The position numbers were made by a program, and so were the translations under genes. DNA of 64,000 bases from an uncultured Candidatus Actinomarina sp. (lineage in GTDB: Bacteria; Actinomycetota; Acidimicrobiia; Actinomarinales; Actinomarinaceae), in the NCBI GenBank assembly GCA_902526825.1, contig CABZMN010000004.1, positions 5,803 to 69,802 of the forward strand, given 5' to 3'. Shown in pieces: positions 42,098-60,247 of the stretch. The notes under the pieces were generated by a model, which saw only the letters and a program-made list of their open reading frames with translations, was not told the DNA's origin and did not search any database. The first letter of the stretch is position 1. Each line of letters starts with the position of its first letter.

Positions 42098-44026
42098 ATG
42101 TCAAAACTTCATGATTTTATGAAAAATAGAGAAGCTTCAGTAACAAGTGTCGTGGATGGTAAAACTATTATTGATTACTTTAACCAAAATGCAGATGAAT
42201 TCCCAGATTATCCAGCACTTAATACTCCAATCAACGATGAATATTCTGGATGGGACTCAACATCATGGTCAGAATATAGAGAATTAGTACATAACCTTGC
42301 CGCTGGACTTATTGATATTGGTTTTAGTCAGGGAGATAATGGCTTTATTGTATCCGACAACACAAAAGAACATTTTATTTCAGATTTATCAATAGTGCAT
42401 GCAGGAGGAACACCATCAACAATTTATAAACAACTTAAAGCTGGACAAATTGCATATATATCAAATTTATTAGATGCAAAAATTGCATTTGTAGGAAACT
42501 CGGAGTTATTTAAAGAGGTAAATGAAGCAAAAAAAGAATGCAAAAATCTAGAATATATCATCATTATTGAGGATTATGAACAATATAAAGACTTAGATTA
42601 TGTTTTAAATTTTCAGGAAATAATTGAAAACGGAAAAAAATTAAATGAATCAGATTCCTCAAAGCTTGAAAATGCTATTGCAAGTGTTACGCCTCAATCA
42701 TTAGCGTGTTTAATATTTACATCCGGTACAACAGGTAATCCAAAGGGTGTAATGATTACACATGAAAACGTATTATGGACCGCACAGAGTCTTTTTGCTG
42801 AAACTGTTCAATTGTCAACAAATCCAAGGATCGTCTCATATCTGCCTATGGCACATATTGCTGCAAGATTAGGAGATCATTATCAGTCAATTTACAGACG
42901 AGGACAAATTTTTCCAGTTCCAATATTAGAGGATATGGCAAAAGCACTTCCAACAATCAAACCATCTATATTTTTAGCAGTACCTAGAGTCTGGGAACGT
43001 TTTCAATCTGGATTGCTGAATAAAATTAATGAATCTGATAAAAAAGATTTAGCACTGAAAGCTATAGATAATGGTCTCGAAAGAGTTGAATATGAACAGC
43101 GTGGAGAGAAACCACCGATTGGAATAAGGCTTAAAGATGCAATATTTAAAAAACTTGTTTTTGAGAAGTCATTTAAACAAGGACTAGGACTTGACAGTAC
43201 AGAAATTTTTGCAACTGCTGCTGCACCAATGAATCCAGACGTGCATAAATGGTTTCATGCTATTCATATTGATGTTACTGAAATATATGGAATGACTGAA
43301 GATACAGGCCCTGCAACTATTGGTATACCAAATCACGCTATTGACTATGTTAAAAATATGTTTAAATCAGGTAGTGTTCCACTTCCTGAAGTTCTAAATC
43401 CTATTGGTAAGGTAGGTATTCCACTTGCAGGAACCGAGGTAAAAGTTCTTGAAGATGGTGAATTATGTATTAAAGGTAAGCACGTTGCATCAGGATATTA
43501 TAAATTAGAGGAAGAAACAAAAGAAACCTTTGATAATGATGGATGGTTACATACAGGTGATCTTGCAGATATTGATGAAAATGGATATGTGAAAATTGTA
43601 GGAAGAAAAAAAGAGATACTCATAACCTCAGGTGGAAAAAATATAGCCCCTGTTGAAATTGAAGATCATGTAAAACCACATACACTCGTAGGTCAAATAT
43701 GTGTTGTAGGAGATGGTAAAAAATTCTTGGCAGCTTTAATTGTTCTTGATGGTGATGGTGGTGCCGAAAAATGGGCAGAGGAAAATGGAGTTGAATATAA
43801 TATAAGTGAAATGTCAAAAAATTCTAGAGTTATCAATGCAATACAAGAACAAATTGATCAAGCAAATTCAAAAGTTGCTAGAGTTCAGCAAATCAAGAAG
43901 TTTACACTTCTTGAAAATGAATGGACAGACTCAAGTGGTGAATTAACACCAACTTTGAAATTAAAAAGAAATGTTATTGCTGAGAGATACAATAACGAAA
44001 TTGAATCAATGTACGAGGAGGCTTAA
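42098..44026 (+). CDS. fadD: Long-chain fatty acid--CoA ligase
   Basis: IFTSGTTGNPKG, SYLPMAH, YGMTE, GWLHTGD, GRKKE, ELTPTLKLKR. Confidence 0.92.
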   Translation: MSKLHDFMKNREASVTSVVDGKTIIDYFNQNADEFPDYPALNTPINDEYSGWDSTSWSEYRELVHNLAAGLIDIGFSQGDNGFIVSDNTKEHFISDLSIVHAGGTPSTIYKQLKAGQIAYISNLLDAKIAFVGNSELFKEVNEAKKECKNLEYIIIIEDYEQYKDLDYVLNFQEIIENGKKLNESDSSKLENAIASVTPQSLACLIFTSGTTGNPKGVMITHENVLWTAQSLFAETVQLSTNPRIVSYLPMAHIAARLGDHYQSIYRRGQIFPVPILEDMAKALPTIKPSIFLAVPRVWERFQSGLLNKINESDKKDLALKAIDNGLERVEYEQRGEKPPIGIRLKDAIFKKLVFEKSFKQGLGLDSTEIFATAAAPMNPDVHKWFHAIHIDVTEIYGMTEDTGPATIGIPNHAIDYVKNMFKSGSVPLPEVLNPIGKVGIPLAGTEVKVLEDGELCIKGKHVASGYYKLEEETKETFDNDGWLHTGDLADIDENGYVKIVGRKKEILITSGGKNIAPVEIEDHVKPHTLVGQICVVGDGKKFLAALIVLDGDGGAEKWAEENGVEYNISEMSKNSRVINAIQEQIDQANSKVARVQQIKKFTLLENEWTDSSGELTPTLKLKRNVIAERYNNEIESMYEEA

Positions 44027-44028
44027 AT

Positions 44029-44943
44029 ATGTCAGATGTTAATTTTGAAAACAGAGTAGCGATTGTTACAGGTGCTGGGAATGGTTTAGGTAAAGCATAT
44101 GCGCTAGAGCTTGGTAAAAGAGGTGCAAAGGTTGTAGTTAACGACCTAGGAGGTGCTGTTGATGGTTCAGGATCAGGTAACTCACCAGCAGATGATGTTG
44201 TAAATCAAATTATCAATAATGGTGGGGAAGCTGTTGCAAATTATGATTCTGTTGCTTCAAAAGATGGTGGAGAGTCAATAGTTCAAACTGCAATAGATAA
44301 TTTTGGAACTGTTGATGCTGTAATTAATAATGCAGGGATATTGAGGGATAGAAGTTTCGCAAATATGACTGAGGAAGAATTTTTGTTAATTGTTGATGTA
44401 CATCTAAAAGGAACGTTTTATGTGACTCATCCTGCATTCAAAATAATGAAGGAAAAAAATTATGGAAGAATTGTAAATGTTGCTTCTCCATCAGGTTTAT
44501 TTGGAAATTTTGGTCAAGCAAATTATGGTGCAGCAAAAATGGGTATAGTTGGTCTTACTAATGTCTTAGCAATTGAGGGGGCTAAATACAATATTAAGGT
44601 AAATGTTATAGCACCTACTGCTTACACAAGGATGACGGAAGGACTCATCCCTGAAGATGTTGGTAAATTTATGACTCCTGAGCTTGTAACACCATTGGTT
44701 ACATATCTTGCATCTGAAGCTTGTGAACCAACCCATGAAATATATGGGGTTGCAGCAGGTAGGTTTGCAAGAATTGGGATAATCACCCATGAAGGTTATG
44801 TTAACCAACAAGCAACAGCTGAAGACATTGCCAACAATATAGATGAGATAAGGACAATTACAGATGGGACTTACCCTTTAAGCAATGATGATGAAAATAT
44901 GTTAATAATGAAAGCTTTACAGGGAAATAGCTCTAACGAATAA
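44029..44943 (+). CDS. SDR oxidoreductase (MFE-2-like 3-hydroxyacyl-CoA dehydrogenase type)
   Basis: TGAGNGLG, VVVNDLGG, NNAGILRD, GNFGQANYGAAK. Confidence 0.9.
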   Translation: MSDVNFENRVAIVTGAGNGLGKAYALELGKRGAKVVVNDLGGAVDGSGSGNSPADDVVNQIINNGGEAVANYDSVASKDGGESIVQTAIDNFGTVDAVINNAGILRDRSFANMTEEEFLLIVDVHLKGTFYVTHPAFKIMKEKNYGRIVNVASPSGLFGNFGQANYGAAKMGIVGLTNVLAIEGAKYNIKVNVIAPTAYTRMTEGLIPEDVGKFMTPELVTPLVTYLASEACEPTHEIYGVAAGRFARIGIITHEGYVNQQATAEDIANNIDEIRTITDGTYPLSNDDENMLIMKALQGNSSNE

Positions 44944-44960: not shown

Positions 44961-46178
44961 ATGGCGAAAATTGAAACAAAACCAGCTGATTCAGAAGAGT
45001 TAATAAAAGATAGACTCAAAGAGCTCATCTCATTCAGAGAAGAAAATCAAAATATTAAAGATTTTTGGGGAAAACAATTTGATTTAGGTTTAGCTTGGGT
45101 ACATTTTCCAGAAGGATCTGGAGGTCTAAACGTAAATCCAAAGTTTCAATTACTTGTAAATGAAACCCTTCGTAAAGAAGGAATTTCAACCAGTAATCGC
45201 ATAGCCAATTTACTTGGTATTGGAATGGGTGCTCCAACAATTAAGGAATATGGAACTCAAGAGCAAATTGATAAATATCTAAGACCCATGTTCACTGCAG
45301 ATGAGATCTGGTGTCAGTTATTTTCTGAGCCAGGATCTGGTTCAGATTTAGCAAGCCTTTCAACAAAAGCAGTAGATGACGGAGATGGGTACATTGTTAA
45401 TGGTCAAAAAGTATGGACCACATTGGGGCATTTATCAAAATGGGGTTTACTTGTTACAAGAACTGATCCGGAGGTTCCAAAACACCGTGGGTTAACATTT
45501 TTTATAGTAGATATGGAATCAGAAGGAGTTGAAGTAAGGCCATTAAGACAAATTACGGGAGAAGCTGAATTCAATGAAGTTTACTTTACAGATGTAAAAA
45601 TTCCAAAAGAAAATGTCTTAGGAGAAGTAGGTGACGGCTGGAGAGTATCATTAGCTATATTGATGAACGAAAGAGTTGCTATTGGGGGCAACGTTAGACA
45701 AAGAGGAAGTGGAGCTCCTGGGCACCTTGTACAACTTTGGAAAGATCGAAACTTAGATGACCCTGTTGTAAAAGACAAGCTCGTGGATTTATGGATTCAA
45801 CAAGAAGCTGTACGGCTTACAAATATGAGAGCTTCAGAACTGAGAGAAAAAGGAACACCTGGTCCTGAAGGCTCTACAAGCAAGCTTCACGAGGCTGAAA
45901 TTAACAAATCTTCTTATGAATTTGGTATGGAGATGTTAGGAAATGATGGATTGTTATTTCCAAGAGGATATGAGTTATCTCAACCTGAATTAAATTTTGA
46001 TAATGATTCATACGGTTTTACCGATACACAAAGTTTATTTTTAAGATCTCGAGCCAACTCCATTGAAGGTGGTACATCAGAAATCATGCGAAACATTATT
46101 GCAGAAAGAGTTTTAGGTCTTCCTAGCGAACCAAAATTAGATAAAGATAAAGCTTGGAAAGATTTGCCAAGATCTTAG
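44961..46178 (+). CDS. Acyl-CoA dehydrogenase
   Basis: WCQLFSEPGSGSDL, NGQKVWT, FNEVYF, IEGGTSEI. Confidence 0.93.
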   Translation: MAKIETKPADSEELIKDRLKELISFREENQNIKDFWGKQFDLGLAWVHFPEGSGGLNVNPKFQLLVNETLRKEGISTSNRIANLLGIGMGAPTIKEYGTQEQIDKYLRPMFTADEIWCQLFSEPGSGSDLASLSTKAVDDGDGYIVNGQKVWTTLGHLSKWGLLVTRTDPEVPKHRGLTFFIVDMESEGVEVRPLRQITGEAEFNEVYFTDVKIPKENVLGEVGDGWRVSLAILMNERVAIGGNVRQRGSGAPGHLVQLWKDRNLDDPVVKDKLVDLWIQQEAVRLTNMRASELREKGTPGPEGSTSKLHEAEINKSSYEFGMEMLGNDGLLFPRGYELSQPELNFDNDSYGFTDTQSLFLRSRANSIEGGTSEIMRNIIAERVLGLPSEPKLDKDKAWKDLPRS

Positions 46179-46798
46179 TTATTATAAATTAAGCAGAACT
46201 TTCCATCCTCTACGGAAACCTCAATATCATTATTGACTGAAATATTTCTTAAAGTGATAGATTTACCAAATTCAATATTTTCATTTTCAAGGTTCCATTG
46301 TGCTCCAGATATATTTAAATTTTTCAAATTCGAAAATGGAAGGATACTAAATTCAACATTATTTCCAATTGCAATTTTTTTTGAATTAGGAATGAGTACT
46401 GTCTGATCCTTATGTATCCAAGAAATTTGTTGGTCCTCTTGAAAGCTAATAATTACAGTTAAAACACTAAACAAATGGTCAATTTCTCCATATTCTCCAC
46501 CTATAATTGTTATATCCTTAATTTCTTTATCCAGTACATGTTTTAAAGCAAGTTCAAAATCTGTTTCATTTTTATTAGTTTTATATTTTAAAATTTGAAC
46601 TTTATCTTTTTCTGCTCTCTGTATAGTTTTCTCATCTATTGAATCAAGATCACCAATAATTAGATCTGGTTTTAAAAATAATTTGTAAGCTTGTTCTGTT
46701 CCTGAATCTACAGCAACTACAAGATCATAATTTCCTAACTGGTCTCTTTTTGTACTATTAAGACCACCGTTTACTATAAGTGCATTTTTCATTTTCAT
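46175..46798 (-). CDS. thiN: Thiamine diphosphokinase
   Basis: AVDSG, PDLIIGDLDS, KNETDFELAL, DH, G.......ISV C-terminus. Confidence 0.88.
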   Translation of the reverse strand: MKMKNALIVNGGLNSTKRDQLGNYDLVVAVDSGTEQAYKLFLKPDLIIGDLDSIDEKTIQRAEKDKVQILKYKTNKNETDFELALKHVLDKEIKDITIIGGEYGEIDHLFSVLTVIISFQEDQQISWIHKDQTVLIPNSKKIAIGNNVEFSILPFSNLKNLNISGAQWNLENENIEFGKSITLRNISVNNDIEVSVEDGKFCLIYNN

Positions 46799-46815
46799 TT
46801 GAAGATTATCATAAA

Positions 46816-47997
46816 TTATTTAATAATTGGCATTGAAGTGTTCATTGCATTTTTTAATGCATTTAAAACTAAAGCTTTTTCGTTTGCTTGCGAAAACACG
46901 AAACCTAAATATTTATCACCATAAGGAGGTTCCAACAAATCTGAATTCTCAAATACAGTTATTTCAACTGCCGATACATTATCAATGTTTTCCAATTCAT
47001 TTTGATTAATTGAAACAAATTTACCAGTTTGAGGAGTTGGAAGCATGAGTACGCCAACATAATTACTAAGGAGTTCAACAGGTTTTAACTCATCATATAA
47101 AAATGCATGTAATGTTATTTCTTCAAGAGAGGCTTTAAACAACCCAAAACTTAAACATTTTGAACAAAGACCACCTATCATTCTTGGATTAATTTCAATA
47201 ATGAAAATATTTCCATCAAGTATTTTAAATTCAACATGTACGGGCCCATTCTCAAGACCAATTTTTTTACATGCATTATCAATCAATTCAACTATTTCAT
47301 TTTGTAATTTTTCAGATAGTTCGCTTGGGGTTATATAGATTGATTCTTCAAAGTAAGGTTCTTTGTATTCAATTGGCTTATCGAAAATTGTTATTTTATT
47401 TAAATTAGAATTTATTAAGTTACCTTCCAATGCATATTCTTTACCATTTATATGTTGCTCAATAACCATTTCCTGATCTTCACATTCGTTCATTAAATTA
47501 ATGATGTAGTCTTTGTTTTTATTAAAATTATCAATTTTTAAAACACTTTTGCTTGCTGACCCAAAGTTTGGTTTTAAAACTGATGTACCATGTTTTTCTA
47601 CAAACACTTCAATATCTTCGAGACTTTTTATAACCATATTTTTTGCTTTTATATTCGATATTGAATTTAAAGTATTTCTTGAGTTAAATTTATTCATTGA
47701 ATGCTCTATTGCATGTAATTTATTTCCTTTAGCATCTAATAAATCAACTAGATAACCAGCAAATTTTAATGCACTATGGTCAACTGGAAGTACGTGAGTT
47801 ACTTTATTAAGCTTTATCAATGTTTCATCGCTTATTTTTTCACTAAAATTATGAATAATTACAGTGTCACCAAATTGACTTGATACTTGATCGCTATCAG
47901 TGATTACTAGAAAATCGATACTTAATCTTTCTGCAGTTAGTACAAAATCATTAGATTTATAGCTATTTTCTGGGATTACTAGCAATAGTTTATTCAT
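46816..47997 (-). CDS. ATP-grasp domain protein of unknown function
   Basis: VLKP, EQHING.E, HVEF, IEINPRMIGG. Confidence 0.85.
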   Translation of the reverse strand: MNKLLLVIPENSYKSNDFVLTAERLSIDFLVITDSDQVSSQFGDTVIIHNFSEKISDETLIKLNKVTHVLPVDHSALKFAGYLVDLLDAKGNKLHAIEHSMNKFNSRNTLNSISNIKAKNMVIKSLEDIEVFVEKHGTSVLKPNFGSASKSVLKIDNFNKNKDYIINLMNECEDQEMVIEQHINGKEYALEGNLINSNLNKITIFDKPIEYKEPYFEESIYITPSELSEKLQNEIVELIDNACKKIGLENGPVHVEFKILDGNIFIIEINPRMIGGLCSKCLSFGLFKASLEEITLHAFLYDELKPVELLSNYVGVLMLPTPQTGKFVSINQNELENIDNVSAVEITVFENSDLLEPPYGDKYLGFVFSQANEKALVLNALKNAMNTSMPIIK

Positions 47998-48037
47998 ATT
48001 TATTTACACATATCTTGAGCTTACTAATATTAAGTAT

Positions 48038-48670
48038 ATGACTGATGAATTTAAATTCAATATTGGAGATAGTGCTGTCAGTAAGATTATTGAATTAAAA
48101 GAACAAGAACCTGGAGATAAAGATTATGCTCTATTCTTACAGATAGATGGTGTACAAGGTAATCAATATACCTATGATCTTAGTTTTTTAGATATTGAAC
48201 AAGCTAGACCAGATGATAAAAATATTGATTTTGGTGATTTGTCTGTAATTATAGCCAGTAAAGATATAGATAATTTTAATGGTGCAGTACTAGAAATGTC
48301 AGATGATCCAAATGCACCAGGACTCACAATGGACAACCCAAATACTCCAAGTCCTTCAATGGTTGGTAACCCTGAAGATTTACCTGAACTTACGGGTGAA
48401 CTTGCAGAGAAGGTGCAAACAGTTCTTGAAAGCCAAATTAATCCAGCAATAGCATCTCACGGAGGAAAGGCATCTTTAGTTGGTATTGAAGGTCAAGATG
48501 TTTATCTTAGACTTGGTGGGGGCTGTCAAGGATGTGGAATGGCTCAAGTAACTCTTACTCAAGGAATAGAAACAGCTTTACGAGATGCTGTACCTGAAAT
48601 AGGAAATATTATTGATGCAACTGATCACGCTTCAGGAAATAATCCTTATTTCGAATCGTCTAAAAAATAA
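48038..48670 (+). CDS. nfuA: Fe-S biogenesis protein NfuA-like
   Basis: Degenerate A-type N-domain (..NPN), then INPAIASHGG, GGGCQGC, DATDHASGNNPY. Confidence 0.88.
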   Translation: MTDEFKFNIGDSAVSKIIELKEQEPGDKDYALFLQIDGVQGNQYTYDLSFLDIEQARPDDKNIDFGDLSVIIASKDIDNFNGAVLEMSDDPNAPGLTMDNPNTPSPSMVGNPEDLPELTGELAEKVQTVLESQINPAIASHGGKASLVGIEGQDVYLRLGGGCQGCGMAQVTLTQGIETALRDAVPEIGNIIDATDHASGNNPYFESSKK

Positions 48671-49645
48671 TTAAAAACGGATTACTGTTTTCCCAATATT
48701 TTTTCTAGATAGAAAGTTTTCAAGTGCTAAAGAAGTCTCTTCTATTGGATGAATATTTTTTGGTTGTATCACTAGTTCATCCTTTTCAATAAATTTAATT
48801 AATTCTTTAAAGTCTTCAGCTGTCTCTTCTGGAGAAGTTGTAGTCCATCTTCCCCACCAAACTCCAACTATTGAGACTCCCTTAACAAGAGTTAAATTTA
48901 ATGGAATTTTTGGTATATTGCCGTCTGTAAAACCTATTACTAGCAACCTTCCATTCCATGCTGTTGCTCTCAATGCTTGTTCTGTTATATCTCCTCCAAC
49001 AGGATCCATAACAACATCTACTCCTTTTCCATCAGTAAGTTCTTTAACTGTTTCCTTCAGTTCAATTTGATCATATCTAATAATTTCATCTGCTCCCAAT
49101 GATTTAACATATTCTGCTTTTTCATCACTGCCAACTGCACATATAGTTTTGACTCCCATTATTTTCGCTAGTTGTATCGTTGCCGTCCCTATACCCCCTG
49201 ACGCACCAAGAACAAGAAGAGACTCATTCTTTTGAATATTTGCTCTTCTTTTGAGTGCGTAATAACAAGTTCCATAATTTATAGGCAAGCTTGCCCCAGC
49301 CATTGAATCGACTTTTTCTGATACTGGTATAACAAGATTCTTATCTACAGAAACATATTCAGAAAAACCTCCTATTGGTGGCAGAGCTATTACTTTGGTC
49401 CCAATCTTAAGATCAACATCATCTCCAGTTTCTTCAACATATCCACAAACTTCATTACCAGGAGTAAAAGGCGGGTCTATTACAATTTGATATTTACCTT
49501 GAACCATTAAAGCATCTGGAAAATTAACACCTGCTGCTTGTACTTTTACTAGTACTTCATTTTTACTTGGCTTTGGTGTTTCAATATCTTTAATCTCAAG
49601 CAGGTTAGGATCACCTATTTTTGTACAAACAACAGCTTTCATCAA
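48671..49645 (-). CDS. Zn-independent MDR oxidoreductase (NADPH:quinone reductase-like)
   Basis: GVNFPD, PFTPGNE, LGASGGIG, DPVGG; no Zn-binding Cys cluster. Confidence 0.88.
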   Translation of the reverse strand: MMKAVVCTKIGDPNLLEIKDIETPKPSKNEVLVKVQAAGVNFPDALMVQGKYQIVIDPPFTPGNEVCGYVEETGDDVDLKIGTKVIALPPIGGFSEYVSVDKNLVIPVSEKVDSMAGASLPINYGTCYYALKRRANIQKNESLLVLGASGGIGTATIQLAKIMGVKTICAVGSDEKAEYVKSLGADEIIRYDQIELKETVKELTDGKGVDVVMDPVGGDITEQALRATAWNGRLLVIGFTDGNIPKIPLNLTLVKGVSIVGVWWGRWTTTSPEETAEDFKELIKFIEKDELVIQPKNIHPIEETSLALENFLSRKNIGKTVIRF

Positions 49646-51096
49646 TCTTCTCTTTTGATTATTCCAGAGAGTTTCTTTGCAAAGTTTTTCTTTTCTTCAA
49701 TATCTACTTTTCTAGAAATTTGTATTCTTTGAGCTTGTGGTGATCCAGCTCCATGCATTGATTCAGTTAAATAAGCAACAGCATTTCTTCCTAATGTCAT
49801 ATTTTCAATAAGTCGTAACATGCTTACACGATCTTCCGTATTTACATCTTCTTTGCCTTTCAAGTATTTCAATAGGTTTGGTGACATCTCACTTTCATTT
49901 ATGTCAATACCTGAAGGCATTGATGCAACTAGTCCACCAGCTAAATCTTGCGCCAACCTTCCTATCTCATAAGTTTCTTTTGTAACATGCTGTTTGCAGA
50001 CATTTGCTAATAAATCGTCATTTATATAATTTCCACTTTTTGTTTTTTTTCCTTGCAAAGATGAAGCAATTCCCGTTGCATAAATAGTTTCATTTAATTT
50101 ATTCATTTCAATCAATTTTTCTTTAATATGTGATTTATCTTCAACACCGTTATATTCGGCAATACTTGCTGCTGCCCCTATCATTACATCCCCAACACCT
50201 GATTTACATACATACGACCTTCGATGATAACATGTAAATCTTTCGACAAGCATTGCAGCAAAATCATATTCACCATTCATAAATATAAATTCGTTTGGAA
50301 TGAATACATTATCAAAAATAACCATTGCTTCTTGACCAGCAAAATATTTATTTCCAACATCATATTCACCTGGCTCCATACTTCTGGTGTCACAGGATTG
50401 TCGTCCATAGATGTATGTAATACCTTCTGTCTCAATGGGCAAGGCTCCTACAATTGCATAATCTTTATCATTTTCAGTAAGCCTTAGAGTTGGCATAACA
50501 ACCATCCAATGAGAATTTATACATCCTGTTTGATGAGCTTTAGCTCCTGAGACATAAACACCATTATCATCTCTTTTAACAACTCTCAAATATAAATCTT
50601 GGTCCGCTTGTTGGTGTGGAGGTTTTGATCTATCACCTTTAACATCAGTCATAGCTCCACCAATCACAAAATTACCCTCATGCATTTTTGTTAAAAAATT
50701 GATAAATTTGTCATGGTAATTTGTCTTATATTTTTCATCAATCTCATATGTTACGGAATGGAGGGCATTGAATGCATCCATTCCTACACATCTTTGGAAA
50801 CACGTACCAGTTAACTGACCAAGTTTCCTTTGCATTTCATTTTGCATAAATAAATCTTCACTGCTGTTCGCAATATGTAAAAATCGATTAATTGGCTCAT
50901 TTGTATAAGGTGAAATAGTTGTAGCCAAATCAGGGTCTCTATCTGCTAATGCATAAGTTTCAGCCATAGCTTCAATACTTGGTTTGATAATTGGATGAGT
51001 GAGCGGATCTTTTACTAGTTCACCCATGAGATAGATAGTTAGATTTCTATTTTTTAGAGAGTTAATATAATCTGATTTTGTACGAATTTTGGTCAT
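49642..51096 (-). CDS. abfD: 4-hydroxybutyryl-CoA dehydratase (AbfD/Hcd, [4Fe-4S]/FAD)
   Basis: GTCFQRCVG (two Fe-S Cys), GAMTDVKGDRS, GAKAHQTG, GQEA, YHRRSYVCK (His/Tyr/Cys), TESMHGAGSPQAQ. The Fe-S ligands distinguish it from HpaB monooxygenases. Confidence 0.9.
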   Translation of the reverse strand: MTKIRTKSDYINSLKNRNLTIYLMGELVKDPLTHPIIKPSIEAMAETYALADRDPDLATTISPYTNEPINRFLHIANSSEDLFMQNEMQRKLGQLTGTCFQRCVGMDAFNALHSVTYEIDEKYKTNYHDKFINFLTKMHEGNFVIGGAMTDVKGDRSKPPHQQADQDLYLRVVKRDDNGVYVSGAKAHQTGCINSHWMVVMPTLRLTENDKDYAIVGALPIETEGITYIYGRQSCDTRSMEPGEYDVGNKYFAGQEAMVIFDNVFIPNEFIFMNGEYDFAAMLVERFTCYHRRSYVCKSGVGDVMIGAAASIAEYNGVEDKSHIKEKLIEMNKLNETIYATGIASSLQGKKTKSGNYINDDLLANVCKQHVTKETYEIGRLAQDLAGGLVASMPSGIDINESEMSPNLLKYLKGKEDVNTEDRVSMLRLIENMTLGRNAVAYLTESMHGAGSPQAQRIQISRKVDIEEKKNFAKKLSGIIKRED

Positions 51097-51150
51097 ACAT
51101 CATTATAAATTGTAAGATTGTGATTTAAAATCTAGTTAGAAATTTATAAT

Positions 51151-52329
51151 TTAAATAACTTCAAATAAGCCAGCTGCACCCATACCACCGCCAACACACA
51201 TAGTTACAACTACGAATTTTGCGTTTCTTCTCTTACCTTCCATTAATGCATGCATTGTCATTCTTGCACCAGTCATTCCATATGGATGGCCTATTGAGAT
51301 TGAGCCGCCATTGACATTGTAAATACTATTATCGATACCAAGTTCGTCTCTACAGTATAAAGTTTGAACAGCAAACGCTTCATTTAGCTCCCAAAGGTCT
51401 ATATCCTCAATTTTCAAATTGAATTTATTCAATAAATCTGGCACTGCATATACAGGACCTATTCCCATTTCCTCTGGTGCTAATGCTGATACTGTCATAC
51501 CTCTGTAATATCCAAGTGGTTCTAGGCTTCTTTTTTCTGCTTCACTTGCTTCCATTAAAACAACAGAAGCTGAACCATCTGATAATTGTGAAGCATTGCC
51601 AGCTGTAATGAACTTTCCTTCTCCGTAAACTGGAGGAAGTGAGGATAAACCTTCTAAATTTGTCTCTGGTCTATTTCCCTCATCTTTTGTTAATTTAACA
51701 TCTTCATCAGTAACTTCGCCGGTTTCTTTATTTTTGACACTCTTGGTTGTAGTTGTTGAGATAATCTCGTCATCAAACTTATTACTTTCTTGAGCAGCTG
51801 CAGTTCTTTGTTGGCTTTGTAATGAATATTCATCTTGATATTCTCTTGAGATATTATATTTTTCAGCAACAAAATCAGCAGTTTCGATCATAGGCATGTA
51901 AGCGTTATCTGCAAGTTTTACCACATTTGGATCTGGAGCAAATCGCAATTCAGCAGTTTGAACCAACGATATAGATTCAACACCGCCTGCAACAACAACA
52001 TTCATATTGTCTGTCATTATTTGTTTTGCACCAGTAGCAATGGCCATTAGGCCAGAAGAACATTGTCTATCTATTGTCATTCCTGGAACAGTAATTGGTA
52101 ATCCTGCTGCGATTCCACTTAGTCTTCCGATATTTAAAGCTTGTGAGCCTTGTTGTTGAGCACAACCCATGATGACATCCTCTATTTCATTTGGATCAAC
52201 ATTTGCTCTTTCAACAGCTTCTTTGATTGAATAAGAACCTAATGTAGGAGCATCTGTTTTGTTGTATGCTCCACGATAAGCTTTTCCAATAGGTGTTCTT
52301 GCTGCTGATACTATTACTGCTTCTCTCAT
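51151..52329 (-). CDS. Acetyl-CoA C-acyltransferase (thiolase)
   Basis: [24 protein letters not shown]. Confidence 0.95.
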
Positions 52330-52346
52330 CTTTAGTCTTCTTTCTT

Positions 52347-52808
52347 CTATTCTGTAATTATAAATAAAGTTAAAGGCTCAACAATAGCTGCTGGTTTATC
52401 TTTACCTTCTATTTCAATTGTAGCAGTATGCTTTACCAACCATCTACCAGCTTTTTTATACTGGACATCTGACAAAACAAATCTCCCTCTAATCTTGCTA
52501 TTTACTGGCACAGCTTCCATGAAACGAACTTTATCAAGTCCGTAATTAATTGCCATTTGAATATTTTCTGGCATGACAGTGTTGTCGGCAGATAAGTAAG
52601 TTATCATACTCAATGTCAGGAATCCATGAGCTATTGTAGTTCCCCATGGAGTGCTTTTAGCCATTTCTTCATCAACATGAATAAATTGATGATCGTTTGT
52701 ACCTTCTGCAAATTGATTTATCCTATCTTGATTTATTTCGAACCAGTCTGAAACACCAACCTCTTGACCAATATATTTTTCCATTTCCTCTGCAGGTACA
52801 ATCATCAT
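52347..52808 (-). CDS. MaoC-family (R)-enoyl-CoA hydratase/dehydratase
   Basis: [33 protein letters not shown]. Confidence 0.92.
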
Positions 52809-53824
52809 GTTATCTCCTCTAATAAATTTTTATTCGCCGCTTTATTTGCAAACTTTATTGTACTGTCCTTAAATGATTCTATTTCATTTTCATTTGTTTT
52901 TCCATATGATCCCATGGAATATCTTATGTACACCCCTTCCATTATCATTGCATGTTTCCAATAAGATAACCTTGTGTAAAATTCAATATCTTTTAAATCT
53001 AGATTTGATTCATTTAGATATAGTTTAATTACATCCTCACGTGTAGGAAATCCACCAGACAGGGTAGGAGAGTAAATAAATGGTGAGTCTTTTTCTTTCT
53101 TTGTGTTCCAAGATGCTATAACTGTTCCCATATCTGCAAGCGGATCTCCTAAAGTACAAAGTTCCCAATCCAGTACGGCTGTTACTTTATTATCATTTAC
53201 TCGAACATTATCTAATCTGTAATCTCCATGAACTATTCCAACAGTTTGTTGTGGAGGAATATAATCAAGAAGTAAATTAGTTGCACTTTCTAATTCTTTT
53301 ATTTCTCTAACTTTTTGAGATTGAAATTGTTTATTCCATCTTTTTATTTGTCTTACTACGTAATTTTCATGTTTTCCTAAATCACTTAATTCTGAATTTA
53401 TAACATTAAAATTGTGTATTTCTGTAAGAGCTTTAATGAATGATTCAGTAATTGTTTTTTTCTGTGATTGGTCATAGCTCCCTGCCACTTGGTCGTTAGC
53501 TATCGTATCACCCTCAATAAATTCCATAATATAAAAATCATCTGTAGATAACTGCTTCTTTTCATATAGATAGAATGGTTTTGGAACCCTTAAACCATTT
53601 TCATTTAAAACTTTTAATATTTTATATTCCCTACCCATATTGTGTGCAGATTCTAATTTGAGTCCAAATGGAGGCCGTCTTAATACAAATGTATTTGAAT
53701 CATCAAAAATTTTAAATGTAATATTTGATCTTCCTACTTTAAATTGTTCAAAGTTGAAATCTTCTGAAATATCTACAACTGTAGAAATATATTTCTTTAG
53801 TTTGTCGCTAAAAAAGTCCATCAA
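52805..53824 (-). CDS. APH-family phosphotransferase (ACAD10/11 kinase domain / LvaA-like)
   Basis: GRSNITF, VLRRPP, AHNMGRE, VHGDYRLDN, VLDWELCTLGDPLAD. Confidence 0.9.
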   Translation of the reverse strand: MMDFFSDKLKKYISTVVDISEDFNFEQFKVGRSNITFKIFDDSNTFVLRRPPFGLKLESAHNMGREYKILKVLNENGLRVPKPFYLYEKKQLSTDDFYIMEFIEGDTIANDQVAGSYDQSQKKTITESFIKALTEIHNFNVINSELSDLGKHENYVVRQIKRWNKQFQSQKVREIKELESATNLLLDYIPPQQTVGIVHGDYRLDNVRVNDNKVTAVLDWELCTLGDPLADMGTVIASWNTKKEKDSPFIYSPTLSGGFPTREDVIKLYLNESNLDLKDIEFYTRLSYWKHAMIMEGVYIRYSMGSYGKTNENEIESFKDSTIKFANKAANKNLLEEIT

Positions 53825-53878
53825 ACAACATATTAATGAAAGTTTTTTGGTTCAGAAGTTTAAATTGATACAATAAGA

Positions 53879-55087
53879 ATGATGGATTTTAATTTCTCTA
53901 AAGAATCACTTGAATTACAAGATAAGCTAAAAACCTTTTTCGCTGACCATATTTACCCAAATGAGGACCTCTATGAGAAGGCAATTAATGATTCAGGAGA
54001 TCCATTGCATATTCCAGAAATATTAAATGAGCTTAAATCAAAAGCTAAAAGTGAAAATTTGTGGAATTTATTTCTCCCTGACAAGGAATATGGATATGGA
54101 TTATCAAATATTGACTATGCACCATTAGCTGAGATAACAGGTCATAATTGGTGGGCTCCTGAAGTATTTAATTGCTCTGCCCCTGATACAGGAAATATGG
54201 AAATTTTAGCCGAGTTTGGAACAGCAGAACAAAAAAAACAATGGCTTGAACCACTTCTTGAAGGAGAAATAAGATCATGCTTCGCAATGACTGAGCCAAA
54301 TGTAGCTTCCTCAGATGCTACAAACATAGGAAGTTCAATTGTCAGTGACGGTGACAATTATGTAATTAATGGTCGTAAATGGTGGACTTCAAATGCAATA
54401 AATCCAAATGCAAAAATATGTATTTTCATGGGTGTGACGAACCCAGATAGTCCTCCATACCAAAGGCAGAGCCAAGTATTAGTTCCTATGGATAGCGAGG
54501 GACTATCGATAATCAGACCAATGCAAGTATTTGGATATGATGATGGATACACAGGACATCCAGAGCTTTTATTTGAAAATGTCGTTGTTCCAAAATCTAA
54601 CATCATTGGGGGAGAAGGAATGGGATTTAAAATAGCTCAAGCTAGGCTTGGGCCTGGAAGAATACATCATTGTATGAGGGCTATCGGAATGGCAGAGAGA
54701 GCATTATCTCTTATGATCGACCGATCACTTGAAAGAGAAACATTTGGTCAAAAATTAGCTGAACAAGGTGTTATTCAAGATTGGATTGCTCGCTCAAGAA
54801 TAAAAATAGAGGAAGCAAGATTACTAACTTTGAAAACTGCATGGCTAATCGATACAGTTGGTAAAGAAGAAGCAAAAATAGAAATCTCATCTATAAAAGT
54901 ATCTGTTGTTGAGGCTGCTTCTTACGTCATCGACAAAGCTATACAAACGTTTGGCGCAATGGGGTTATCCCAAGACACTCCACTAGCTAGGATGTCTGCA
55001 GGAGCTCGTGTATTAAGAATTGCAGATGGACCAGATGAAGTTCACTTAAGATCAATAGCAAGAAGAGAAATTAATAAACATAGATAA
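53879..55087 (+). CDS. Acyl-CoA dehydrogenase (ACAD10/11 / LvaC-like)
   Basis: LWNLFLP, YAPLAE, FNCSAPDTGNMEIL, FAMTEP, RLGPGRIHHCMR, RIADGPDEVH. Confidence 0.92.
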   Translation: MMDFNFSKESLELQDKLKTFFADHIYPNEDLYEKAINDSGDPLHIPEILNELKSKAKSENLWNLFLPDKEYGYGLSNIDYAPLAEITGHNWWAPEVFNCSAPDTGNMEILAEFGTAEQKKQWLEPLLEGEIRSCFAMTEPNVASSDATNIGSSIVSDGDNYVINGRKWWTSNAINPNAKICIFMGVTNPDSPPYQRQSQVLVPMDSEGLSIIRPMQVFGYDDGYTGHPELLFENVVVPKSNIIGGEGMGFKIAQARLGPGRIHHCMRAIGMAERALSLMIDRSLERETFGQKLAEQGVIQDWIARSRIKIEEARLLTLKTAWLIDTVGKEEAKIEISSIKVSVVEAASYVIDKAIQTFGAMGLSQDTPLARMSAGARVLRIADGPDEVHLRSIARREINKHR

Positions 55088-55089
55088 TT

Positions 55090-55956
55090 ATGGAAAAAGT
55101 TGCAGTTATCGGTGGTGGACAAATGGGAAGTCAGATTGCGGCTTTATCAGCAATGTCAGGTCATGAAACAAGTATCTTTGATAGCAATAAAGAATATTTA
55201 GATAGCAAATTAGTTTTTACCAAAGAGAATATAGAAAATTTAGTTTCTAAAGACTTGATAAAAAAAGAAAGCTTGGATAATTTTAACCAAAATCTTAAAG
55301 TTTATGATTCACTTGAAACGGTGGTAGATGATAAAACATTTGTAATTGAAGCTGTAGTTGAAAGATTTGACATAAAAAAAGAAATTTTTTCAACGATTTC
55401 AAAAATACTCGATGAGGATGTTGTTCTTGCAACAAACAGTTCATTTATAGCTGCATCAGAAATTGCGCAACACTGTAAACATCCCGAGAGATTTATAAAT
55501 ATGCACTTCTTTTACCCTCCATTAAGAATGGATCTCATTGAAATTTCATTTCCAGAATCCACTAGCAAAGAAATAGTTGATAGGACTAAAGAACTGAGCA
55601 AATTGATGGGAAGAACAGTTGTAACTTTAAATAAAGAAACACCAGGCTTTATTGTAAACAGGATGTTAGGTGCGTTAGTTGATGAGGCCTACGAATTATA
55701 TGACGAAGGAATAGCCGACTTTAAAGATATAGACCTAGCAATTAAGAAAGGATTGAACCATCCACTAGGACCATTTGAATTGACTGATTACTCAGGCTTG
55801 GATATTAGTTATTATTCAAAACTTAAAATTTATAATGAAACAAAAAACCCAAAAGATAAACCCAAAAAATTTCTAGAAGAAAAAGTTAAAGATGGGAAAT
55901 TGGGTGTAAAAACAGGAGAAGGTTTTTACAATTATGACAAACCTTCAAAGTCTTGA
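55090..55956 (+). CDS. 3-hydroxyacyl(butyryl)-CoA dehydrogenase
   Basis: GGGQMG, EAVVE, ATNSS, MHFFYP, PGFIVNR, HPLGPF, GVKTGEGFY. Confidence 0.92.
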   Translation: MEKVAVIGGGQMGSQIAALSAMSGHETSIFDSNKEYLDSKLVFTKENIENLVSKDLIKKESLDNFNQNLKVYDSLETVVDDKTFVIEAVVERFDIKKEIFSTISKILDEDVVLATNSSFIAASEIAQHCKHPERFINMHFFYPPLRMDLIEISFPESTSKEIVDRTKELSKLMGRTVVTLNKETPGFIVNRMLGALVDEAYELYDEGIADFKDIDLAIKKGLNHPLGPFELTDYSGLDISYYSKLKIYNETKNPKDKPKKFLEEKVKDGKLGVKTGEGFYNYDKPSKS

Positions 55957-58024: not shown

Positions 58025-59287
58025 ATGAGTAATTCAGACCTTTTTGAGTCAAACATGTATAAAGAGGTCATTAAGCAATATGATGAAGTAACAGAGTTTA
58101 TTAATCTTGATTCGAACATTAGAGAAAGATTAAAACTTCCCCAAAGAGCACTAACAGTTACATTTCCCTTTAGAAGAGATGAATATGATGAGGTAGAAAC
58201 TGTAATTGGATACCGAGTACAACATGTCTTATCAATGGGACCAACAAAAGGTGGTATTAGATATGCTTCGAATGTGAATTTAGGAGAGGTTACAGCATTA
58301 GCAATTTTGATGTCATGGAAGTCAGCAATTGTTGGTTTACCTTATGGTGGAGCAAAGGGTGGTGTTGCAATTGACCCAACCCCTCTTTCAAAACAAGAGA
58401 AACAAAGGGTTACAAGAAGATACACAGCTGAGTTGTTGCCAGTAATTGGCGTTGACAAGGACATCCCTGGTCCAGATCTTGGAACAGATGAACAGACTAT
58501 GGCATGGATCATGGATACATACAGTAATTTTGTTGGCTCACCGCAACCAGGAATTGTAACTGGTAAACCAGCTTCACTTGGAGGCTCTATCACAAGAAGA
58601 GAAGCAACCGGTAGAGGAGTTGTAGCTATTGCAAACGCAGCTTTAGATAAATTAAATTTAAAATATGAAAACTCAACAGTTGTTATCCAAGGATTTGGAA
58701 ATGTTGGTAGGTATGCGGCTCTTGACTCGTACGAAAGAGGAGCAAAAGTAATTGCTGTAAATGATTTAGGTGGTGCTATTTATAATAAGAATGGAATTAA
58801 TATTCCCGAACTCTTTAAGCACATAGCTAAAAACAAATCTGTAAAAGATTTTGATGGTGCAGATAATTTTGACGAGGAAATATTGGAAATTGAATGTGAT
58901 ATTTTAATTCCTGCTGCTGTTGGAGGTGTTATCAAATCAAATAACGCAGACAATATCAAAGCAAAAATTATTGTTGAGGGAGCAAATTCACCAACAACCC
59001 TGAGTGCGGATAAAATATTAAGGGATAATGGAGTTTTACTAATACCCGATATTCTTGCAAATGCAGGGGGTGTTACTGCCAGTTATTTTGAATGGGTCCA
59101 AAATACACAGAATTATTTATGGAAAGAAAAAGAATTACACGATCGATTGATCGATGTTCTGATCTCAGCCTTTGAAGAGGTATGGATTATTTCTGAAAAG
59201 AATAAAGTTGACTTAAGAACAGCTGCTTTAATTAAAGGAATTAAAAAAGTTGCTGCTGCAAAATTAACTAGAGGATTATTTCCGTAA
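58025..59287 (+). CDS. gdhA: Glutamate dehydrogenase (Glu/Leu/Phe/Val family)
   Basis: GPTKGGIRY, MSWK, GGAKGG, DIPGPD, VTGKP, QGFGNVG, EGAN, NAGGV..SYFEW. Confidence 0.93.
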   Translation: MSNSDLFESNMYKEVIKQYDEVTEFINLDSNIRERLKLPQRALTVTFPFRRDEYDEVETVIGYRVQHVLSMGPTKGGIRYASNVNLGEVTALAILMSWKSAIVGLPYGGAKGGVAIDPTPLSKQEKQRVTRRYTAELLPVIGVDKDIPGPDLGTDEQTMAWIMDTYSNFVGSPQPGIVTGKPASLGGSITRREATGRGVVAIANAALDKLNLKYENSTVVIQGFGNVGRYAALDSYERGAKVIAVNDLGGAIYNKNGINIPELFKHIAKNKSVKDFDGADNFDEEILEIECDILIPAAVGGVIKSNNADNIKAKIIVEGANSPTTLSADKILRDNGVLLIPDILANAGGVTASYFEWVQNTQNYLWKEKELHDRLIDVLISAFEEVWIISEKNKVDLRTAALIKGIKKVAAAKLTRGLFP

Positions 59288-60247
59288 AAATTCTTCTATA
59301 TCTTTAATTATTTTATTTTTTGTAATATTCAATTCTTCCAAATTTTTATTGATTTCATCAAGATTTGTATTTTTTAGTGGACTGTTATCAGGAAGATTAT
59401 CTAAACCTCCAACTAAATTTATAGCTTCTAATGTTTCATTAATTTCATCTATTTTTTCATTACAATTTTCTAGCTCAACTGTACTTGGTGCGTTTTTATT
59501 AAACTCTGGGCAAATTGGTTTGTAGTAACACCAATCACATAATGTATTTTTGATTGTTGGGAAATTGTTACTTTCAAATGCAACTTTAATATCATTCCAT
59601 ATCTCTAAAATCTCTTTTTCAGCATTTTTAAGCATTTCTTCATCTACTTTCATTGTGTGAATAGTTGAGTTTTGTAAATAAATTAACTTTAATTCAACTG
59701 GTGTTTCACCAATTTCATTTTTGATCAATAACGCATACAACTTTAATGCAAAAAATCTTGGTTCTTTGTATTTAGCATTTGGAGCTTTTCCAGATTTGTA
59801 ATCTACAATAATTAATTCACCTTTTTCATTTCTATCCATCCGGTCTAATATTCCACGTAAATTTAAATCCTCTATAGTGCCTCTAACCCATCTTTCTCTC
59901 TCTAAAGGATCAAATAACGCAGGATTTTCAAGAGTTAAGTAATTAGAAAGAAGCTTTAATCCATCTAATCCCCATTCCCTCTCTTCGGATTGATTATTAA
60001 ATAGATGAACATGTTCATCACTTGCTCGTACATCTGTCCATACTTTCCTGAATAAATTATGAAGATTTTCTAGATTTCTTTCTTCTTTAGGTAAATCAAA
60101 TATTTTTTCTAAAGCTTCGTGTACAGTTATTCCTTTTGCTTGTACTTCATTAGTTGGCTCTTTAATTTTGTCAATATTCGCAAACTTAAATTGTTTAGGG
60201 CAAGTTTTAAATTGGGATGCTCTTGATGGTGATAAATTTTTAATCAT
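59276..60247 (-). CDS. RecB-family PD-(D/E)XK nuclease with Fe-S staple cysteines (Cas4/AddB-like)
   Basis: LSPS....FKTCP, G..VHEALE, RGILDRMD, IVDYKSG, LYA, CDWCYYKPICP. Confidence 0.88.
   Translation of the reverse strand: MIKNLSPSRASQFKTCPKQFKFANIDKIKEPTNEVQAKGITVHEALEKIFDLPKEERNLENLHNLFRKVWTDVRASDEHVHLFNNQSEEREWGLDGLKLLSNYLTLENPALFDPLERERWVRGTIEDLNLRGILDRMDRNEKGELIIVDYKSGKAPNAKYKEPRFFALKLYALLIKNEIGETPVELKLIYLQNSTIHTMKVDEEMLKNAEKEILEIWNDIKVAFESNNFPTIKNTLCDWCYYKPICPEFNKNAPSTVELENCNEKIDEINETLEAINLVGGLDNLPDNSPLKNTNLDEINKNLEELNITKNKIIKDIEEFLRK

Follow-up and report, generated by a model that had tools for sequence, protein, structure and literature searches.

Two putative entry routes for 4-hydroxyacyl-CoAs in one beta-oxidation locus of Candidatus Actinomarina, one of them an accessory 4-hydroxybutyryl-CoA dehydratase

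A stretch of 64,000 nucleotides from an uncultured Candidatus Actinomarina sp. (assembly GCA_902526825.1, contig CABZMN010000004.1, positions 5,803 to 69,802 of the forward strand; hereafter the window) contains a seven-gene locus at positions 48671-55956. The locus carries an APH-fold kinase and an acyl-CoA dehydrogenase (ACAD) of the ACAD10/11 type, together with AbfD, a 4-hydroxybutyryl-CoA dehydratase (4HBD). Our preferred reading, to which a probability of about 0.55 is given, is that these represent two separate, non-redundant entry adaptors for gamma-hydroxy acyl-CoAs that share one beta-oxidation kit. AbfD would act on the C4 primary alcohol 4-hydroxybutyryl-CoA, dehydrating it to crotonyl-CoA at no cost in ATP. 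The kinase would phosphorylate 4-hydroxyacyl-CoAs of C5 and longer (secondary alcohols), and the ACAD11-type enzyme would then eliminate the phosphate to leave a 2-enoyl-CoA. Both products would be finished by shared enzymes, either a MaoC hydratase and an MFE-2-type SDR (R-specific) or a crotonase and a 3-hydroxyacyl-CoA dehydrogenase (HBD; S-specific), followed by thiolase. Gene identities, motifs, gene order and the distribution of AbfD were read directly from the genomes compared; all substrate assignments, and the division by chain length, are predictions.

Seven open reading frames (ORFs) were recovered at coordinates identical to those of a first-pass annotation made from the letters alone, and Pfam and NCBIfam gave the expected domains for 7/7. 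The gene identities proposed in that annotation proved right for all seven in domains, structure matches and motifs. The core of the locus comprises the following features (lengths in amino acids, aa, or nucleotides, nt).

48671-49645, minus strand: MDR reductase-like protein of the zinc-free quinone-oxidoreductase/enoyl-reductase type, 324 aa; ADH_N and ADH_zinc_N (Pfam); terminal gene of the minus-strand string.
49642-51096, minus strand: AbfD, 4-hydroxybutyryl-CoA dehydratase (vinylacetyl-CoA isomerase), 484 aa; HpaB_N and HpaB; accessory in the operon.
51097-51150, minus strand: thiolase-AbfD spacer, 54 nt; contains the top promoter-like match of the minus strand.
51151-52329, minus strand: thiolase (acetyl-CoA C-acyltransferase), 392 aa; Thiolase_N/C; NF005494 at 539.8 bits.
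52347-52808, minus strand: MaoC-type enoyl-CoA hydratase, 153 aa; PF01575.
52805-53824, minus strand: APH-fold kinase of the ACAD10/11 / LvaA type; PF01636; leads the minus-strand string.
53825-53878, no strand: spacer that separates the divergent kinase and ACAD11-type genes, 54 bp (57 bp with the ATG start of the kinase).
53879-55087, plus strand: ACAD10/11 / LvaC-type flavoenzyme, predicted 4-phosphoacyl-CoA phosphate lyase, 402 aa; ACAD N, M and C domains.
55090-55956, plus strand: HBD of the 3HCDH family, 288 aa; 3HCDH_N and 3HCDH; NF004474, NF006124.

The kinase and MaoC genes overlap by 4 nt, as do the AbfD and MDR genes. The remaining gaps measure 17 nt (MaoC-thiolase), 54 nt (thiolase-AbfD) and 2 nt (ACAD-HBD), and the spacing fits two divergent strings. 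The divergent spacer was confirmed as 54 bp at 53825-53878, as first annotated. Codon 2 of the kinase reads ATG (53821-53819), and alignments to relatives begin at residue 1-2; this ATG at 53821 is the probable start, so the spacer may be 57 bp. Two routes to a 2-enoyl-CoA are encoded side by side, with the kinase and abfD in the same gene string, and on this point the first-pass annotation was also correct.

The ACAD protein matched mouse ACAD11 (8v3u) at E 2e-129, whereas ordinary ACADs reached only about 1e-40. It carries RLGPGRIHHCMR, a string also found at the aligned position of 8v3u, which corresponds to R626 (the upstream Arg) and H634-R637 (the HCMR motif) of mouse ACAD11. It also carries ADGPDEVH, identical in 8v3u, in which lies the catalytic Asp (mouse D753) that replaces the usual ACAD Glu; the chain numbering of 8v3u runs one below that of the ACAD11 paper. 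Rashan et al. describe all three of these features as specific to ACAD10/11 and LvaC (PMC12440821). Judged by these motifs, the enzyme is predicted to turn 4-phosphoacyl-CoA into 2-enoyl-CoA. The kinase matched 9o56 (E 2.5e-47), 3dxp (1.8e-40) and the kinase part of ACAD11 (8.6e-39), and scored 134.8 bits against PF01636. Its motifs HGDYRLDN (the HxDxxxxN catalytic loop) and DWE (with the putative metal-binding Asp) were present in the alignments to 9o56 and 3dxp.

The kinase and ACAD11-type genes are divergent neighbours, 54-57 bp apart, and this arrangement is kept in the sister genus and in every locus of the genus with both genes on one contig. The ACAD11-type gene was found in 39/41 relatives and in 16/16 genera sampled in the class, and the kinase likewise in 39/41 relatives. 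In ACAD10/11, the kinase and ACAD domains convert 4-hydroxyacyl-CoA to 4-phosphoacyl-CoA and then to 2-enoyl-CoA (PMC12440821; PMC11342911), and split Burkholderia kinase and ACAD proteins substitute for the ACAD10 domains (PMC11342911). The preferred kinase substrate is R-4-OH-C6-CoA, an R secondary alcohol (PMC11342911), with chain preferences of C6 for ACAD10 and C10 for ACAD11 (PMC12440821; PMC11342911).

Two tiers of ACAD10/11-like genes were seen in other Acidimicrobiia. Genes whose products share 50-61% identity with the window protein make up the closer tier and have no kinase nearby; those of the more distant tier, at approximately 40%, adjoin an APH kinase (G033:C23:15448-17600, G032:C2:293652-296021). 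A further locus listed for this pattern is G027:C1:755049-760438. The two tiers may be two functional subfamilies.

AbfD enzymes convert 4-hydroxybutyryl-CoA to crotonyl-CoA without ATP, by Fe-S/FAD radical chemistry. The window AbfD aligned over residues 4-480 to 6vjr (E 3e-216) and matched 1u8v, the Clostridium aminobutyricum enzyme, at E 2e-162; its Pfam domains scored 299 bits (PF11794) and 216 bits (PF03241). The 6vjr entry was deposited under the name vinylacetyl-CoA delta-isomerase, and its numbering fits the Nitrosopumilus maritimus 4HBD of the DeMirci preprint, from which the list of ligands was taken. Fe-S ligands C99, C103, H291 and C297 of the window protein correspond to C. aminobutyricum C99, C103, H292 and C299, and are invariant in 99/99 relatives. 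Catalytic residues T190, E256, Y295 and E445 correspond to C. aminobutyricum T190, E257, Y296 and E455. The Actinomarina enzyme is predicted to dehydrate 4-hydroxybutyryl-CoA to crotonyl-CoA. A homology search with AbfD listed at least 120 matches, every one at least 82% identical and apparently from close Actinomarina relatives.

Residues connected with oxygen tolerance were compared in the same alignments. According to the DeMirci preprint, L77, T102, R441 and N442 of the N. maritimus enzyme close two tunnels to the cluster, and these four changes are found in ammonia-oxidising and other archaea. The window AbfD has L73, T98, R437 and N438 at these positions, where 1u8v has A, S, A and S; the tunnel glycine (N. 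maritimus G257) is replaced by Ala. The Thr, Arg and Asn were present in 99/99 close AbfD relatives and the Leu in 95/99, in lineages that are mostly aerobic; the universality of the Thr is partly by construction, as that residue stood in one of the two scan patterns. By its residues, the window AbfD is classed as the oxygen-tolerant type. In one relative (L068, Pyrinomonadales) an in-frame stop aligns to window residue 233, the position of a conserved tunnel Gln, which could reflect a sequencing error, a pseudogene or recoding.

AbfD was found in 53/65 genomes of the order and in 20/41 relatives of the comparison set. Outside the genus it was found in 2/15 other genera, one of these being a weak HpaB-type match. 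An 18-gene block is syntenic throughout the genus. In six AbfD-less genomes of the genus the locus lies on a single contig (G001, G003, G004, G005, G009, which is a single 1.01-Mb contig, and G015). Their gene order is kinase-MaoC-thiolase-MDR, with the thiolase followed by MDR after 24-146 nt. A seventh AbfD-less genome, G024, showed no locus genes and is hence uninformative. The thiolase-MDR gaps of the six genomes contained no AbfD remnants, only 7-12-nt chance matches in AT-rich spacers, and these gaps cannot separate loss from never having been inserted. When mapped on a phylogeny built from eight concatenated locus proteins, AbfD presence requires at least four changes, and within the genus these changes are most simply losses.

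All Actinomarina AbfDs fall into a single clade (support 100) whose internal order roughly follows the locus tree. The sister genus, represented by one genome (G085), has an AbfD that branches as sister to this clade (support 100). The nearest outside relative of the Actinomarina clade is from a gammaproteobacterial metagenome-assembled genome, and the one further AbfD found in Acidimicrobiia clusters with Bradyrhizobium. G085 has a fully syntenic beta-oxidation locus (kinase-MaoC-thiolase-MDR) that lacks AbfD. The ancestral frame is kinase-MaoC-thiolase-MDR, divergent from ACAD11-HBD; most species of the genus carry AbfD as an addition to it, between thiolase and MDR. In the simplest history the family ancestor acquired AbfD once by horizontal transfer, and the gene then moved once into or out of the operon and was lost several times within the genus. 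A position of AbfD within three genes of the kinase among approximately 1000 genes is unlikely a priori, yet it is a single historical event in one genus. The patchy presence of AbfD beside a near-universal kinase/ACAD pair fits a dispensable C4 speciality, and fits a matched pair less well.

In the G085 region L131:7995-13803 the AbfD gene lies divergent from isocitrate lyase; then come an SDR, a 598-aa ACAD and a CoA-binding protein, a context that suggests acetyl-CoA assimilation via the glyoxylate shunt. Within the genus, a sharp change of identity was observed at the thiolase/AbfD junction when the window (46175-51096) was compared with L014/L015 (G008, G018). ACAD11, HBD, MaoC and thiolase are 98-99% identical between them, AbfD 91%, MDR 85%, NifU 89-90%, an ATP-grasp protein 67% and thiamin pyrophosphokinase 64%. 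The junction looks like a recombination boundary.

The enzymes expected to complete both routes were searched for in the window genome by tblastn, and one match each was found for thiolase, HBD, MaoC and the MFE-2 SDR in this 74.6% complete genome. The genome also gave a second FadD, two weak extra ACAD matches and, elsewhere, two crotonases. Thiolase, HBD and MaoC are the sole copies detected in this incomplete genome and therefore cannot be taken for dedicated partners of either 4-hydroxyacid enzyme; in the first-pass annotation, hydratase, HBD and thiolase take crotonyl-CoA to two acetyl-CoA. The stretch is the core of one consolidated beta-oxidation locus in a streamlined genome. The upstream part of this beta-oxidation neighbourhood comprises three further genes, and this FadD-SDR-ACAD block is syntenic across the genus and the sister genus.

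42098-44026, plus strand: FadD11-like acyl-CoA ligase, long-chain type.
44029-44943, plus strand: MFE-2-type (3R)-hydroxyacyl-CoA dehydrogenase SDR; 2et6, E 6e-144.
44961-46178, plus strand: second ACAD.

The best matches of the SDR were MFE-2 (3R)-hydroxyacyl-CoA dehydrogenases (2et6, E 6e-144; 1gz6, E 1.5e-83; 1zbq). The top PDB match of MaoC was 2c2i (E 2.6e-33), the structure of Rv0130, which we take to be an R-specific hydratase. The R-specificity of MaoC and the S-specificity of HBD are assigned from their families. On these assignments both an R route (MaoC and SDR) and an S route (crotonase and HBD) are predicted to be present. The first-pass annotation had implied a further enzyme and suggested the SDR at 44029, which fits the R-specific dehydrogenase that is needed, and had placed the CoA ligase outside the core with fadD at 42098 as a candidate; that gene encodes the FadD11-like long-chain ligase. 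The MDR protein scored 244 bits against TIGR02824 (PIG3 family), below the cut-off, and its top PDB match was 4eye (E 2e-67), followed by quinone oxidoreductases.

AbfD neighbourhoods outside the genus were surveyed in 68 loci, taken from among the best 80 of at least 588 confirmed relatives and 66-73% identical. The lineages covered were Planctomycetota, Bacteroidota, Acidobacteriota, Chloroflexota, gamma- and other proteobacteria, Nitrososphaeraceae and others. Neither the kinase nor an ACAD11-type gene was found within 10 kb of AbfD in any of these non-Actinomarina loci (0/68); the lone ACAD match labelled ACAD11 near AbfD is 25% identical and is an ordinary ACAD. An ACAD11-type gene (43-54%) was present elsewhere in the genome in 4/5 distant AbfD-bearing genomes tested, and the occurrence of AbfD and an ACAD11-type gene in the same genome is common. 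The first-pass annotation had proposed a paired system, and had named uniqueness of the abfD adjacency beforehand as a finding that would count against it. In the co-occurrence and synteny survey the adjacency was largely unique: the 68 outside loci lack the kinase and the ACAD11-type gene, the sister genus carries AbfD elsewhere, and six loci within the genus are free of AbfD. A conserved pairing is not supported.

Neighbour clustering of the 68 loci gave, as the commonest neighbours of AbfD, an SDR (13/68 loci), an HMG-CoA-reductase-like protein (11/68), an MFS transporter (10/68), a crotonase (7/68) and MaoC (6/68). By tblastn, MaoC homologues (42-49%) lay beside AbfD in 7/68 loci, in Bacteroidota and gammaproteobacteria. 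In three Woeseiaceae-like genomes a MaoC-SDR(MFE-2-type)-thiolase-MDR operon converges on AbfD with the gene order seen in the window; its proteins are 47-49% (MaoC), 48-52% (SDR), 63-64% (thiolase) and 43% (MDR) identical to those of the window. The order SDR-MaoC-AbfD was found in four Bacteroidota loci. The thiolase subtype of the window reached E 1e-100 in 2/16 other Acidimicrobiia genomes, one being the AbfD-bearing genome. The recurrent partner of window-type AbfD is an R-specific beta-oxidation module, not the kinase system.

A gene of the HMG-CoA-reductase family (PF00368; E 1e-125 for a representative) was observed up to approximately 5 kb from AbfD, often with an MFS transporter or crotonase, in L051, L052, L053, L063, L067, L068, L071 and L081 (Acidobacteriota) and in L069, L077 and L080 (Cytophagales). 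By analogy, its product could convert succinyl-CoA to 4-hydroxybutyrate, or interconvert 4-hydroxybutyryl-CoA and the diol. It may be an undescribed feeder for AbfD.

Transcription signals and RNA evidence were examined for the core locus. The best promoter-like match of the minus strand, TTTAAA-16-TATAAT, lies in the thiolase-AbfD spacer at 51129-51102. The promoter scan gave 28 sites against a mean of 38.1 in shuffled sequence, and terminator-like sites numbered 2 against 4.0. As there were fewer sites than in the shuffles, the scan lends no statistical support to any transcription unit; the spacer match is no more than a hint that AbfD-MDR may have its own start there. Seawater metatranscriptome contigs from four studies cover 7/7 genes. 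Single contigs bridge thiolase-MaoC-kinase and also the AbfD/MDR junction, and among the contigs listed none bridges the thiolase-AbfD spacer. Summed depth is lower over AbfD and MDR, a difference that is uninterpretable because AbfD-less relatives share the flanking genes, and contig depth is unable to rank genes. Upstream of the ACAD11-type gene, a by-eye reading found an extended -10-like element, TGATACAAT (53869-53881), that ends 4 nt before the ATG and leaves no room for a ribosome-binding site. The ACAD11-type mRNA may be leaderless.

Several observations weigh against the reading of two non-redundant adaptors. The proposed split between C4 and C5-and-longer substrates draws on known AbfD chemistry, and the excerpts of the two ACAD10/11 papers (PMC12440821, PMC11342911) report no assay of 4-hydroxybutyryl-CoA; a literature search for 4-phosphobutyryl-CoA returned nothing. 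For making or activating 4-hydroxybutyrate, no AbfT-type transferase and no family III CoA-transferase were found in the window genome, nor were an iron-dependent alcohol dehydrogenase (Fe-ADH) or an HMG-CoA-reductase-like gene, in an assembly that is 74.6% complete. The nearby ligase is of the long-chain FadD11 type. Throughout Actinomarinales gene order is conserved, with low gene turnover (PMC7771536), so a shared arrangement inside the genus says little about function. In 12 loci of other Acidimicrobiia, no kinase lay within 9 kb of the closest ACAD11-type orthologue; since the closest ACAD11-type gene and the closest kinase are not adjacent there, the coupling is not universal in the class. 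A preprint reports phosphorylation of 1-O-alkylglycerols in vitro by the kinase domains of ACAD10/11 and by several homologues from prokaryotes (bioRxiv 10.1101/2025.09.10.675409), and the window kinase may therefore have another or an additional substrate. One metatranscriptome contig crosses the divergent spacer, so DNA carry-over is possible. The contigs show presence in RNA libraries only, and one transcript is not provable from them.

The first alternative is that the adjacency is incidental, the kinase being, for example, an alkylglycerol/monoacylglycerol kinase or other small-molecule kinase, and the locus no more than the beta-oxidation cluster of a compact genome in which AbfD happened to settle. 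The alkylglycerol activity of prokaryotic homologues of the ACAD10 kinase domain, the 12 kinase-free Acidimicrobiia loci, the unrelated genes in the neighbourhood (thiamin pyrophosphokinase, ATP-grasp, NifU, D-Tyr-tRNA deacylase) and a gene order frozen order-wide whatever the function (PMC7771536) speak for this account. We consider it improbable as a whole: the kinase gene stands divergent to one whose product retains all ACAD10/11-specific motifs, in the genus and the sister genus alike, and its gene overlaps the MaoC start by 4 nt. Moreover, second-tier kinase/ACAD pairs are adjacent in other Acidimicrobiia (G033:C23, G032:C2), and a split bacterial pair performs the 4-hydroxyacyl-CoA reactions (PMC11342911).

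The second alternative, favoured by the first-pass annotation, is a hedge on the same substrate, whether 4-hydroxybutyryl-CoA or a shared set of 4-hydroxyacyl-CoAs, in which an ATP-costly route insensitive to O2 and iron is held alongside an ATP-free, O2-sensitive Fe-S route. Kinase and AbfD do stand in one gene string, and AbfD can disappear from a genome that retains the kinase/ACAD pair, which would be expected of a pair able to stand in for it. Both routes give 2-enoyl-CoA from 4-hydroxyacyl-CoA (PMC12440821 for the kinase route). The oxygen contrast on which the idea turns is weakened by L73, T98, R437 and N438, the tunnel-closing residues of the air-tolerant N. maritimus enzyme. The organism inhabits oxic surface water, which gives an oxygen switch little to act on (PMC7771536), and the hedging idea loses force because AbfD is of the tolerant type in an organism of that habitat. 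Published kinase activity is with secondary alcohols, with R preference, and no C4 activity is reported in the excerpts (PMC11342911). The pairing was also not found outside one genus (68 other AbfD loci; sister genus). On balance a same-substrate hedge appears highly improbable, and the alternative offered in the same annotation, routes split by chain length, is the most likely reading.

Least probable of the three is another role for AbfD, as a vinylacetyl-CoA delta-isomerase or in the reverse direction (crotonyl-CoA to 4-hydroxybutyryl-CoA) towards a product derived from 4-hydroxybutyrate, with MDR as reductive partner, which would suit the name carried by 6vjr, the lack of any 4-hydroxybutyrate-making or -activating enzyme found in the window genome, the 4-nt overlap of AbfD with the MDR start and the described use of the archaeal enzyme in the direction that forms 4-hydroxybutyryl-CoA (PMC13288912), but operons that lack AbfD still contain MDR, AbfD contexts in other phyla (hydratase, dehydrogenase, thiolase, transporter) and the isocitrate lyase of the sister genus are catabolic or assimilatory, and unfound genes are weak evidence in a genome 74.6% complete.

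The host genome comprises 0.88 Mb of assembled sequence at approximately 33% G+C, is 74.6% complete, and contains the window on its contig C4. Candidatus Actinomarina has a genome of approximately 1 Mb and approximately 1000 genes and ranks among the smallest and most abundant free-living cells in the surface ocean. Genes of the neighbourhood unrelated to beta-oxidation encode thiamin pyrophosphokinase, an ATP-grasp protein, NifU and D-Tyr-tRNA deacylase. NifU beside the operon was considered as an Fe-S helper for AbfD and dropped, being equally present in AbfD-less genomes. Besides AbfD, a second gene here varies in presence, the ATP-grasp gene (PF13535; 46816-47997, minus strand) between thiamin pyrophosphokinase and NifU; it is present in the window, G011, G008, G018, G015, G003 and the sister genus, and was undetected in the other genus loci examined. 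A 323-aa ORF at 59276-60247 (minus strand) gave a weak Cas4-like / PD-(D/E)XK match (TIGR00372, 48 bits, below the cut-off of 65) and is conserved genus-wide. The only strong aldehyde dehydrogenase of the genome (3095-4534, plus strand; PF00171, 535 bits) lies approximately 45 kb from the locus and is a candidate oxidiser of 4-hydroxy aldehydes or succinic semialdehyde.

The locus was compared with four known systems. As in P. putida lva (LvaA, LvaC) and the split pair of B. pseudomallei, a separate APH-fold kinase gene adjoins an ACAD10/11-type gene with the ACAD motifs kept. Unlike in those systems, the window genes are divergent instead of sharing one operon, and the kinase is in an operon with MaoC, thiolase, AbfD where present, and MDR. 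Beside LvaA and LvaC the lva operon has a small LvaB partner, the 4-oxoacyl-CoA reductase LvaD, the short-chain ligase LvaE and the regulator LvaR. In the window a further ORF would not fit between the kinase and MaoC, and the nearby ligase is of the long-chain FadD11 type. The locus is not classed as an lva operon. Mammalian ACAD10 and ACAD11 share the same catalytic motifs (ACAD part E 2e-129, kinase part approximately E 1e-38) but are fused, whereas the window proteins are split and without a HAD domain.

AbfD resembles the N. maritimus (6vjr) and C. aminobutyricum (1u8v) 4HBDs in its full-length match and in all Fe-S ligands and catalytic residues, and of the two shares the four tunnel-closing substitutions with N. 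maritimus alone. Its setting differs from both: the host is a heterotroph, with no 3-hydroxypropionate/4-hydroxybutyrate (HP/HB) or gamma-aminobutyrate-fermentation setting (HP/HB carboxylase and cycle genes were not searched for), and AbfD stands in a beta-oxidation operon with an R-specific-type hydratase, as opposed to a crotonase and (S)-HBD only. The R-specific enzymes recall peroxisomal MFE-2 beta-oxidation, which likewise has a MaoC hydratase-2 domain and a (3R)-hydroxyacyl-CoA dehydrogenase SDR; unlike MFE-2, they are separate proteins with genes 8 kb apart, coexisting with S-specific HBD and crotonases. All parts are of known families, and the arrangement is a genus-level variant, no new kind of system. 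Literature searches found no paper joining Actinomarina with 4-hydroxybutyryl-CoA dehydratase, and none joining the dehydratase with LvaA, ACAD11 or 4-phosphovaleryl-CoA, only two co-mentions with the word levulinic in unrelated contexts. The text of the main Actinomarinales genome paper (PMC7771536) contains no fatty acid, acyl-CoA, lipid or hydroxybutyr term.

A wider proposal, which we regard as speculative and rather unlikely at present, is that oxygen-tolerant AbfD is the key enzyme of a widespread, undescribed aerobic gamma-hydroxybutyrate route in heterotrophic bacteria (AbfD, MaoC, an MFE-2-type dehydrogenase and thiolase, with MDR), and that Actinomarina plugged AbfD into its sole beta-oxidation operon, beside a kinase/ACAD11 route serving longer 4-hydroxy acids. 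The reach of the oxygen-tolerant 4HBD type is widened by the archaeal-type residues in many aerobic bacterial lineages, and the recurrent bacterial partners of AbfD are R-specific beta-oxidation enzymes.

The carbon sources of Candidatus Actinomarina are poorly known. A genome of approximately 1 Mb that keeps the kinase/ACAD11 pair near-universally, and AbfD in most species, points to 4-hydroxy acids as real substrates. If the wider proposal is true, 4-hydroxy acids would be a significant and overlooked substrate class in sunlit seawater, the sources of which could be 4-hydroxybutyrate together with 4-hydroxyalkenals or lactones formed when polyunsaturated lipids are photo-oxidised. Ecotypes able or unable to use the C4 member would, in that case, be marked by the patchy occurrence of AbfD. 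The distribution of the gene (53/65 genomes with AbfD, six examined loci without) provides a natural presence/absence series for ecology in an abundant marine lineage.

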